Virus record (IMG/VR): IMGVR_UViG_2740892234_000020
Length of the DNA stretch: 36,453 nucleotides
Reading direction: 5' to 3' (one strand)
Origin: a virus
Taxonomy: Duplodnaviria; Heunggongvirae; Uroviricota; Caudoviricetes
Shown here: piece by piece, positions 12,001-15,000 of the stretch
Numbering within the stretch: the first letter of the stretch is position 1
How the letters are laid out: each line of letters begins with the position of its first letter
Position numbers: made by a program

Positions 12001-15000
12001 GACCCGGGGGAGACGCAAATACGGTTCCGTATGGGGCCGGGAAACATTATTGAGACAAACAGCAATGGCTGGTTCCCGGATACAGATGGCGCACTCATCA
12101 CCGGACTGACCTTTCTTGACCCCAAAGATGCCACACGGGTTCAGGGTTTTTTTCAGCATTTGCAGGTCAGGTTTGGTGACGGGCCGTGGCAGGATGTCAA
12201 GGGGCTGGATGAAGTGGGCAGTGATACAGGCAGAACAGGAGAATGACATGAACATTTTGAGAAAGCTTATGCAGAGTCTGTGCGGTTGCGGAAAGCATGA
12301 TGACTGTGAAAACGGGCAGTCGCTTACAGCACAACTGCGACTGGGACCGGCAGACATTCNNNNNNNNNNGAGCGTCTGTGTGGTTGCGGAAAGCATGATG
12401 ACTGTGAACACGGGCAGTCGCTTACAGCACAGCTGCGACTGGGACCGGCAGACATTCTGGAGTCAGATGAGAATGGCATTATTCCGGAGCAGGACAGGGT
12501 AATCACACAGGTGGTGATACTGGATGCAGATAAAAAGCAGATACAGTGTGTGGTAAGACCGCTGCAAATCCTGCGTGCTGACGGGACGTGGGAAAATATT
12601 GGCGGGATGAAATAGCCGACAGCTTCACAAAAACCGGAGCCCGGCTCCGGTTTTTGTTGTCATGTATAGGGGGGGGGTTATTAGAGAGTGAAGTAATAAA
12701 CATGTTAATACGATGGAGTGAAGGATGCCGTGTAATTCTGGTTCAAGAGTTTTTTATGCCGGAAAATCGCAGGATTATTCTGGATAGTAAAGAATCCTGG
12801 TTAATAATCTGTGATAGTCAGTTGGGCCATTTAATGCGCAGTATGTATCAGGGACGCCGTTTTATTCAGCTGAATCTGGAAAAATTGAAAGGGGTACATG
12901 ATGTCGCCTTGCCAGTGAAATGGGAATTCACACGAAGACAGTGAATAGCTTTCTGTATACGGGAATGGCGAAAAATGGACTGTATGGTGTGAGTGTGAAA
13001 CATCTTGCGTGTGCGGAGTGATGCTTCTCGTTGCTACAGCGGCAATGATAATGCAGTGAAAAAAGGGGAGCAATATGCTCCCCCAAACCGAAAGAAAATT
13101 GCAATAATCAATGAAGTTATTTAGTCATCATCAGAATGTCATGCAAGGCATTTTGTTTCAGTGATGCCGATCGCGATTTTAGCGAATTCCATCATAAATC
13201 CCCTGATTTTTAAGCCTGAAGCAGTCAAAGGAATTTCTATGCCCTATATCGATATCACCACGATGCGTGGGATGATGCCGCGCGTTGTGACATCCATGCT
13301 GCCCGAGCATTCCGCTGTACTGGCGGAGGACTGCCATTTCCGGTTTGGTGTTATTACACCAGAACGTCAGATATCCGGGGTTGAGAAAACATTCACAATT
13401 AAGCCAAAAACAATTTTTCATTACCGTGACGATTTCTGGTTTGCATGGCCGGATGTGGTGGATGTGATCCGCAGTCCGATCGCTCAGGACCCCCACGGGC
13501 GTATTTACTACACTGACGGGCGTTTTCCTAAAGTGACGGATGCAACCATTGCCACAAAAGGGGACGGGAATCATCCGGCATCATCGTATAGTCTGGGGAT
13601 CCCCGCGCCGACGACAGCACCTGTCTGTACTGTTCAGCAGGGCGGTGATGTTTCTGACGATAACCCGAATGATGACGAAACCCGGTTTTATACGGAAACC
13701 TTTGTCTCAGATTATGGTGAAGAAGGTCCGCCAGGTCCGGCGTCTCTGGAGGTAACACTCCGTACTCCGGGGACTGCGGTACAGCTGACGCTGTCTCCGG
13801 TGCCATTGCAGAATGCCAGTATTAAACGCCGCCGGATTTATCGCTCTGCATCAGGTGGAGGGGAGGCGGATTTTTTACTTGTGGCTGAACTGGATGCATC
13901 CGTGCTCAGTTACACGGACAAAATACCGGGGAAAAACCTTGGACCTTCTCTGGCGACATGGGATTACCTGCCGCCGCCAGAGAATATGACAGGCCTTTGC
14001 CTGATGGCTAATGGTATTGCCGCCGGGTTTGCCGGTAATGAAGTGATGTTTTCGGAAGCGTATCTGCCGTATGCATGGCCGGAAGTGAATCGTCACACGA
14101 CGGCAGAAGATATTGTGGCTATCTGTCCGCTGGGAACGTCACTGGTGGTGGCGACAAAGGGGGAGCCTTATCTGTTCAGTGGGGTATCACCGTCCACAAT
14201 TTCTGGCTCCAGAATTCCTTCCATGCAGGCATGCCTGAGCCGAAGAAGTATGGTGGCGATGGAGGGATTCGTACTCTATGCCGGGACAAACGGTCTGGTA
14301 TCTGTTGATGTAAACGGTAATACAGCACTGGCAACGGAAAAGATTATTTCACCTGAACAGTGGCAGAGTCAGTTTAACCCGGCGTCCATTGTGGCTTATT
14401 CCTGGCGTGGTGAGTACATTGCCTGTTACACGAAACCGGATGGTAAGCAGGATGTGTTTGTATTCAGTCCGGTGAACATGGATATCCGTTATCTCAGTAC
14501 ACCGTTTGACTGCGCATGGGTTGATCTCGCGAAAGATATGATGCGCGTGGTGACAGGAGACAAAATGTCAGTGCTTGCCGGGGGCTCTCTGCCCTCCACG
14601 ATAAGGTGGCATTCAAAAATTTTTTCATTACCTGAAAGAACCTCTTTTTCCTGTATCAGGGTGAAATCTCCGGCGCCTGAGCGGGTGGGGATCACCATTA
14701 TGGCTGATGATGTTCCTGTGATTCATTTTGCGCCGGGTACGTTTAAGGGAAGTGTGGTGAGACTTCCGGCAGCAACCGGGCAAAACTGGCAGGTGATGGT
14801 ATCCGGATTCGGGCAGGTGGAACGAATAACCCTGAGTACATCGATGTCGGAGATGCCGGTATGACCAGAAAACCGTGGCGTGCGGGGAAGGATTTATCCA
14901 CAGTTGTGGAGAACATGGAAATTGGCACCGGGCAGCGTGGTGACGGACGCCACGCATTTGTGACCCGTGAGGAACTGGTTGGTCTTAAACTCGCCCGGCG

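Follow-up and report, generated by a model that had tools for sequence, protein, structure and literature searches.

A one-way terminator in a tail-gene spacer of 933W-like Shiga toxin phages and the leftward Hfq-associated RNA that it probably ends

The window analysed here, the whole stretch of 36,453 nucleotides (nt) of virus record IMGVR_UViG_2740892234_000020 (IMG/VR), is the late region of a Shiga toxin (Stx)-converting phage of the 933W/VT2-Sakai (Sp5) type, subfamily Sepvirinae, genus Traversvirus. The element under study is a minus-strand hairpin followed by a run of T (13059-13083), which lies in the spacer upstream of a tail gene. A 2-kb query around the hairpin matched 334 phage records at 80%-99% identity, nearly all of the 933W/VT2-Sakai (Sp5) type. 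Annotations were compared for 933W, phi345, a RefSeq genome that is 100% identical over an 801-nt query, and Escherichia coli O157:H7 Sakai. All four have the same gene order and carry every gene on the plus strand. First comes the gene for the collagen-like tail fibre (L0121/ECs1228), followed by a small tail-fibre C-terminal gene (ECs1229, 12346-12615), a small AT-rich open reading frame (ORF; L0123/ECs1230, 12756-12944), a spacer of 295 nt, the tail gene ORF70/ECs1232/L0124, and the tail tip fibre gene.

The tail gene begins at an ATG at 13239, preceded by the Shine-Dalgarno sequence AAGGA (13228-13232). This start, first called from the DNA alone, agrees with the annotated start codon of L0124/ECs1232, and the AT-rich island proposed at the same time is also borne out, with a GC fraction of 0.40-0.46 across 12700-13300 against 0.50-0.69 on both sides. 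Plaque formation and lysogenization by Sp5 require ECs1232, but DNA packaging does not (PMC5155283); this marks ECs1232 as essential and as acting on the tail side. A start at the in-frame GTG at 13161 would add an N-terminal extension of 26 amino acids (aa; 13161-13238), and the product is accordingly 567 aa long in older annotations, which start at this GTG, versus 541 aa in the Prokaryotic Genome Annotation Pipeline, which uses the ATG with its good Shine-Dalgarno sequence. In phage Ss-VASD an upstream start is annotated for the ECs1232 homologue too, but the sequence there is unrelated.

Read 5' to 3' on the minus strand, the hairpin is GGGGAGCA-UAU-UGCUCCCC (13083->13065), with eight perfect pairs, six of them G-C, around a 3-nt loop and an optional G.U pair (13084/13064) that would extend the stem. 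The run TTTTTT (U6 in the RNA; 13064->13059) follows directly and is succeeded by C, and the 3' end of a transcript would be expected at about 13059-13062. The perfect 8-bp hairpin with a minus-strand T-run of the original prediction thus stands, as does its remark that there is no minus-strand gene to terminate: none is annotated upstream of the hairpin in 933W, phi345, the 100%-identical RefSeq genome, or Sakai. A GC-rich stem, a short loop, and a U-tract directly 3' on the minus strand only are the features of an intrinsic terminator. On the plus strand the sequence 3' of the hairpin is CAAACC (GACCAG among variants), and the terminator is therefore one-way, since a T-run is lacking there. 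The hairpin is the top-ranked terminator-like site in the 8-18 kb part of the window, with a fold energy of -16.2 kcal/mol (z = -4.3; none of 200 shuffles folds as well). When a strict test was applied to both strands of the whole window (perfect stem of at least 8 bp, at least five G-C pairs, a loop of 3-6 nt, and T at five or more of the next six bases), five matches at three loci were obtained, against a mean of 0.005 matches per dinucleotide shuffle (200 shuffles). The same hairpin, including the loop (GGGGAGCAATATGCTCCCC), was also seen at 9622-9644 of an unrelated metagenomic phage contig (L019), where it ends a minus-strand gene of 294 aa; this could be convergence or a travelling terminator module.

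The 145 nt at 13056-13200 are 100% identical to prophage Sp5 of E. coli O157 Sakai, and published Sakai data therefore apply directly to the window. In the Hfq data obtained by UV cross-linking and analysis of cDNA (CRAC), the intergenic region int_1209 (ECs1231...ECs1232) holds rank 27 among the top 100 intergenic regions (Tree et al., 2014; PMC4104026, Table S1B), with 81206, 6030, 70478, 146246, and 3140 "sense" reads and 0 "antisense" reads in the five experiments. Table S1B gives no definition of "sense" for intergenic regions, and the strand was calibrated here on known small RNAs (sRNAs). Regions flanking plus-strand sRNAs (spf, ssrA, cyaR, micA, and chiX; also the tufB tRNA cluster) have their reads under "antisense", those flanking minus-strand sRNAs (ryhB, sroC, and oxyS) under "sense", and the spacer of AsxR, whose strand is given as "-" in Table S2, has the majority under "sense". 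Since known minus-strand flanks have their reads there, "sense" corresponds to the minus strand; the late operon of Sakai is on the plus strand. The signal is strong: in sample 1, int_1209 (81206 reads) lies between the ryhB flank (35599) and the AsxR spacer (113165; PMC4104026).

A second data set places RNase E on the same strand. Two chimeras with a fragment labelled "ECs1231-1|5UTR" (1287527->1287493 and 1287526->1287503) were recovered by cross-linking, ligation, and sequencing of hybrids (CLASH) with RNase E (Waters et al., 2017; PMC5286369). The fragments map uniquely to the minus strand of the window, at 13153->13119 and 13152->13129, and fix the old Sakai coordinate as the window coordinate plus 1274374. 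The partner is rRNA in one chimera and the core sRNA MgrR in the other (1 read, -12.8 kcal/mol; PMC5286369). In the MgrR chimera a 5' motif, AUGCCUUGCAUG, pairs with CCAUGCAAGCAU of MgrR over 11 bp with one bulge. The motif is specific to one of the two alleles described below (allele A) and absent from allele B; the pairing is a lead from one read, not a result. A short antisense RNA had been proposed for this spacer, and that part of the proposal is supported by the minus-strand-only Hfq cross-linking, by the CLASH fragment at 13153->13119, and by a size that fits the proposed 80-150 nt. The further suggestion that the RNA covers the ribosome-binding site (RBS) and start of the tail gene (13228-13241) is not supported: the fragments stop at 13153 and the cross-linked spacer appears to end at 13160.

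Comparison of relatives divides the RNA into a constant and a variable part. Two alleles cover all related loci. Type A is found in 933W/Sp5, in this window, and in about 270 of 5426 complete E. coli genomes, and type B in phage 86, P-EibD, GER2, and Eib-carrying prophages. Rightward from about 13155 the alleles are near-identical for 300 nt (to about 13450), while in 13100-13149 they are only 54%-56% identical. At the terminator, all 16 stem bases are identical in both alleles, the loop carries one substitution, and the T-run has a length of 5-7 in every variant. A third variant, from PhiR5_1-type phages, keeps the stem through a double change from C-G to U-A. Just 5' of the terminator is a U-rich single-stranded linker, GCAAUUUUCUUUCGGUUUG (13085-13102, minus strand; CUUCUUUCUUCUGGUC in type B), a typical Hfq-binding module. 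It is preceded by an internal hairpin (13103-13121, minus strand) in which AAUAA (13121-13117) pairs with UUAUU (13107-13103); in the alignment (A1), columns 51-55 pair with columns 65-69 in 100% of cells. One of its 5 bp shows a compensatory change from U-A to C-G between the alleles, and this support, which comes from a single evolutionary split, is suggestive only. The RNA body documented by CLASH (13119-13153, minus strand) has a block common to both alleles, AUGAYAUUCUG (13142-13132). An RNAalifold structure with five double-changed pairs was rejected, because the changes reflect the single A/B split and the structure fits allele A poorly (-10.9 against a minimum free energy of -28.4). 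In vivo Hfq binding, taken from the published CRAC data with the strand deduced as above, goes together with a U-rich strand before a terminator hairpin and poly-U. The predicted layout matches enterobacterial sRNAs that depend on Hfq, with a 5' body that varies (13153-13122 at the least), then a small hairpin, the U-rich linker, the GC hairpin, and the U6 tail.

The 5' end of the RNA is less clearly marked. By consensus scan no minus-strand promoter was found near 13154-13200. In this zone, which is the candidate for a 5' extension and promoter, a position-weight-matrix scan gave two -10-like hexamers on the minus strand, TAAAAT (13181-13176) and TATGAT (13196-13191), and these two best hexamers predict starts at about 13169-13184, downstream of the RBS in the direction of minus-strand transcription. 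Such starts bear on a variant of the antisense idea, in which transcription of a cis-antisense RNA begins past 13241 and the RNA, lying across the tail gene's Shine-Dalgarno sequence and start codon, directly prevents translation of that gene. The terminator is only 155 nt from the start codon, a -10-like AAAAAT (13211-13206) and weaker sites occur further upstream, and an 18-aa minus-strand ORF (ATG 13195, with an upstream GGGG motif) would need a longer transcript too. The predicted starts at 13169-13184 fall short of the RBS, however, the documented fragments end at 13153 and the cross-linked spacer, as deduced, at 13160, and the consensus scan passes no minus-strand promoter upstream of 13241 until 14372-14343. 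We consider masking of the RBS quite unlikely.

The same ORF raises the question of coding function, namely that the RNA encodes a very small protein, MMEFAKIAIGITETKCLA (18 aa; ATG 13195, stop 13141-13139). A GGGG(A) motif is found 4-7 nt before two ATGs, and the two alleles agree in the first 12 codons, allele B having a version of 24 aa. This identical N-terminal part lies, however, within the block that is near-identical anyway (about 13155-13450), while the C-termini are wholly different between the alleles and variant B3 (L042) stops after codon 14. The Sakai ribosome-profiling small-gene tables hold no entry near these coordinates. A small-protein mRNA is thus highly improbable, and the 18-aa ORF was rejected as not conserved and absent from those tables. 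A longer antisense ORF of 131 aa (13179-13574; ORF-11c in AP004402) was likewise rejected; it is interrupted by stops in Ss-VASD, and relatives lack its ATG.

The history of the spacer explains where the hairpin came from. The position upstream of ECs1232 is a hot spot for cargo across phages: a tail-fibre adhesin gene and cor are found there in phage 86, eib-orf156-orf60 in the Eib prophages, and L0123 in the 933W type. The orf-60 product, a membrane peptide of 43-60 aa ending in FVWLGGVLALVATAAVVMQ, is encoded intact in P-EibD, GER2, and a further relative (L005), where the gene ends exactly at the A-run of the hairpin; searches of Pfam and NCBIfam assigned it to no family. Phage 86 carries a frameshifted orf-60. 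In the window, the plus-strand segment 12950-13059 is a decayed orf-156/orf-60 remnant of an eib-type (immunoglobulin-binding protein) cassette, in which an internal deletion leaves the last 16 codons of orf-60 (ending in MLLVATAAMIMQ), again up to the A-run. At the level of sequence comparison, this shows that the 933W-type spacer derives from the Eib-type arrangement by deletion and replacement.

In PhiR5_1-type lambdoid phages orf-60 is followed by a homologous hairpin, GGGGAGU-UAACUU-ACUCCCC and AUUUUUU on the minus strand, placed and oriented as in the Stx phages immediately past the orf-60 stop codon. Its role there is to end transcription of a convergent dinI-like gene, which encodes a normal protein of 82 aa. 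The Stx phages have no gene upstream of the hairpin on the minus strand, only some unrelated sequence (about 70-110 nt). The dinI-like gene was seen convergent on orf-60 and ending at the homologous hairpin in PhiR5_1 itself (1638-1960 of sequence L051) and in two others (L057 and L059), and a match to the LexA-box consensus CTGT-N8-ACAG precedes it (CTGTATGTATAAACAG in L057). A derivation of the RNA body from the decayed 3' end of such a gene was tried and rejected (tblastn with the DinI-like protein, E >1). From these relationships, the hairpin is best read as an ancestral leftward terminator at the right-hand edge of the cassette, its stem kept via a compensatory change.

Two Oslovirus relatives illustrate the edge of the homology. 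Ss-VASD has unrelated sequence upstream of the ECs1232 homologue and no hairpin there. In PPwrbA_EC3734 (L008) homology with the window begins at about 13155, and no hairpin is found upstream of the ECs1232 homologue. The latter is the sole relative with the ECs1232 leader that is without the leftward terminator; a plus-strand terminator-like hairpin (GTGTCCATTAAAAATGATGGACA then TTATTTTTG) was noted at about 2400-2500 of this sequence, before the start of homology. When one genome per species was searched with the ECs1232 leader, the sole match was a contig of 601 bp assigned to "Xanthomonas pisi" (NZ_JPLE01000137.1; L049), most likely a contamination with E. coli phage DNA.

A terminator inherited with a cassette may serve simply as an insulator that blocks leftward transcription into the cargo and tail-fibre genes, and the Hfq-bound RNA would then be a by-product of spurious antisense starts in AT-rich DNA, bound by Hfq only for its terminal hairpin and U-tail. 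A barrier against antisense readthrough had also been part of the original prediction, and the origin of the hairpin as a convergent terminator lends it some weight. The hairpin always stands directly after the orf-60 stop, and its PhiR5_1-type homologue terminates a convergent gene. Moreover, a second terminator, palindromic and bidirectional with T-runs on both strands (AAAACCGGAGCC-CGG-GGCTCCGGTTTT, about 12633-12651; -21.7 and -22.2 kcal/mol), sits 17 nt past the tail-fibre C-terminal gene, adjoining a mosaic breakpoint at about 12673, and together with the hairpin at 13065-13083 it brackets the AT-rich ECs1230/L0123 cassette. The scans yielded no clear promoter, and conservation of the RNA body between alleles is only ~55%. 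Against this, read counts on par with the ryhB and AsxR loci argue for a defined, stable RNA rather than noise, and both alleles retain the U-rich linker and the internal hairpin, the latter with its compensatory change. A pure insulator therefore appears a real though minor possibility.

The hairpin could also act in the plus-strand RNA, as a 3' stabiliser or processing site for cargo or late transcripts, with the T-run a side effect of the orf-60 stop and its A-run. It folds about equally well in that RNA (-15.0 kcal/mol) and follows the orf-60 stop codon directly in every context. However, no plus-strand reads at all were cross-linked to Hfq in the spacer, and the A-run persists at a length of 5-7 even in sequences with a deleted or frameshifted orf-60, which fits selection for a minus-strand U-tail and not for coding. 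A plus-strand role is scarcely credible.

Taken together, the hairpin and U-run are probably the terminator of a leftward, Hfq-associated RNA of ~95-125 nt that is made in lysogens. We infer that a promoter in 13160-13200 gives rise to it as a discrete primary transcript and that it acts by base pairing. Leftward transcription would start at about 13160-13200 in lysogens, while the rightward late operon is silent, and would end at the terminator to leave a stable RNA of this length. Hfq would bind through the U-tail and the U-rich linker, and RNase E would also contact the RNA. In trans, the RNA may pair with host or prophage RNAs via Hfq, as other Sp5 sRNAs do. In cis, it is perfectly complementary to the late-mRNA spacer just upstream of ORF70/ECs1232, and the duplex could trigger cleavage, lowering tail-gene expression from leaky, induced, or superinfecting phage.

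Several observations weigh against a dedicated RNA. The presence of the hairpin alone requires no sRNA gene, because it is derived from a cassette and is a dinI terminator in the PhiR5_1-type phages. The strand of the int_1209 reads is deduced from known sRNAs and is not a statement of the authors of the data, and the limits of the int_1209 interval depend on what was presumably a minus-strand call for ECs1231. The CLASH chimeras number only two, one with rRNA and one a single read with MgrR, and no Northern blot of the spacer RNA was found in the literature. The position-weight-matrix scan of 13154-13200 found no convincing -35 element; the best full promoter match (ATGACA-17-TAACTT, 13142/13119) was rejected, as it lies inside the documented RNA and is lost in allele B. 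Folding does not separate the strands, the plus strand folding as well as the minus, and the RNA body is only ~55% identical between alleles.

The spacer signal is already in published supplementary tables and has never been described or named. The RNA is not among the 63 EcOnc sites of Table S2, in which no coordinate near 1287xxx occurs (PMC4104026), and not among the Stx-phage sRNAs of a 2021 review. A literature text search with the RNA sequence gave no match. Rfam returned no match at gathering thresholds; the best scores below threshold, RsaOG (27.5 bits against 50) and DapZ (22.5 against 56), both owe their scores to the terminator. Of 5426 complete E. coli genomes, 280 carry the element; RefSeq has no annotation for the spacer RNA, and the 40 E. 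coli records listed show no annotated feature at the position of the element. Gruber and Sperandio reportedly described sRNA103, sRNA108, and sRNA110 in BP-933W in 2015. If their numbering follows genome order, which we assume, sRNA110 presumably lies to the right of lom and not at this spacer.

The omission from the EcOnc list can be accounted for by its filter, which kept sites only if they were antisense to, or >100 bp from, coding regions (Tree et al., 2014); according to the same group, the Sp5 copy of StxS was dropped for a nearby ORF (Sy et al., 2020). In the older annotation ECs1232 starts at the in-frame GTG at 13161. The "5UTR" label of the CLASH fragments suggests that the old ECs1231 was a minus-strand ORF call across the terminator, since withdrawn by RefSeq. 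A peak at about 13085-13160 would then lie within the exclusion zone, which may explain why it was left out. Four published Hfq-binding sites convert into the window, all on the minus strand: EcOnc53 (18012-18064), EcOnc36 (27059-27141), EcOnc43 (33982-34030), and EcOnc31 (34289-34365). EcOnc53, which is 24B_1/sRNA108, is just right of lom, and EcOnc36 is antisense inside a gene of 2806 aa. Leftward Hfq-bound RNAs thus recur in the late region.

Short antisense RNAs that end at a terminator have a precedent in the OOP RNA of phage lambda, which is convergent with the 3' end of a gene and leads to duplex-dependent cleavage. OOP is located in the cII region, has a known promoter, and has no sequence relation to the spacer RNA. 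The closest comparison is the EcOnc set, which comes from the same prophage and Hfq CRAC data set (Tree et al., 2014; AsxR/EcOnc02 and EcOnc53 in Sp5). Like these RNAs, the spacer RNA comes from the minus strand, opposite to the late operon, maps to a site of cargo ("moron") insertion, and would end at an intrinsic terminator; unlike them, it is absent from the 63-site list and lies in the tail-gene region, not downstream of PR'. Its 5' part varies while its 3' terminator part is conserved, as in the anti-sRNAs. It differs from the anti-sRNAs AsxR/AgvB (EcOnc01-03; 51-60 nt, with a shared 3' region of ~42 nt, located 3' of PR' cargo) in its greater predicted length and in its location, and no similarity to the AsxR region or to any other part of Sp5 was found. 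StxS (Sy et al., 2020) is also Hfq-bound, from the same phage, ended by an intrinsic terminator, and missing from the list in its Sp5 copy. However, it is a plus-strand PR'-tR' by-product of late antitermination control that is processed by RNase E, whereas the spacer RNA runs opposite to the late operon. Lysogens of Salmonella prophage BTP1 likewise express an RNA, STnc6030, that is complementary to the late structural (tail) region of this short-tailed temperate phage (summarised in PMC12197685). STnc6030 offers a model for a possible action of the spacer RNA in cis or against superinfecting relatives. According to the same source, STnc6030 overlaps the tailspike coding region and has an exclusion phenotype, while the spacer RNA overlaps an intercistronic spacer. 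Other families were set apart by location: the Pas sRNAs lie by holin/lysozyme or Q/LpxR genes, with PasB in other phages, and HnrS corresponds to EcOnc10-12 in Sp9, Sp10, and Sp12, not Sp5. A type I toxin-antitoxin system was rejected, because orf-60 is cut to its last 16 codons in the window and no intact small hydrophobic toxin ORF is left; among the cassettes compared for this purpose, the ORF is intact in Eib-type prophages only.

Phages of the 933W/Sp5 type with Stx2a carry the toxin genes behind the most severe disease caused by enterohaemorrhagic E. coli, and the Stx-phage sRNAs AsxR, StxS, and EcOnc53/24B_1 are known to alter host physiology, toxin expression, and lysogeny. Shared by most 933W-like Stx phages and by ~5% of the complete E. 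coli genomes, the locus appears to encode one more abundant Hfq-bound RNA. A stronger claim, that this RNA has a regulatory function and escaped the original filters, either as an antisense to late mRNA or as a sponge for a core sRNA, is tentative and seems unlikely. Were it true, an antisense role would damp virion production of leaky, induced, or superinfecting 933W-like phages, as with STnc6030. A sponge role like that of AsxR/AgvB, for which the single CLASH chimera points to MgrR, would tie carriage of an Stx2a phage to regulation of the host envelope. The two diverged alleles, with 55% identity in the body and an identical terminator, might then be target-specific variants. If functional, the RNA would also be a regulator in an unusual place, encoded among tail genes and opposite to the late operon, and the boundary terminator of a cargo cassette would have become the 3' module of a new sRNA. 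If the RNA is only the by-product of an insulator, the finding is an ordinary one.

The window itself contains runs of exactly 10 N at 11610-11619, 11951-11960, 12360-12369, and 31172-31181. Three of the four interrupt the region of the collagen-like tail-fibre gene and split its frame into several ORFs; these runs look like masking or assembly gaps, not biology.

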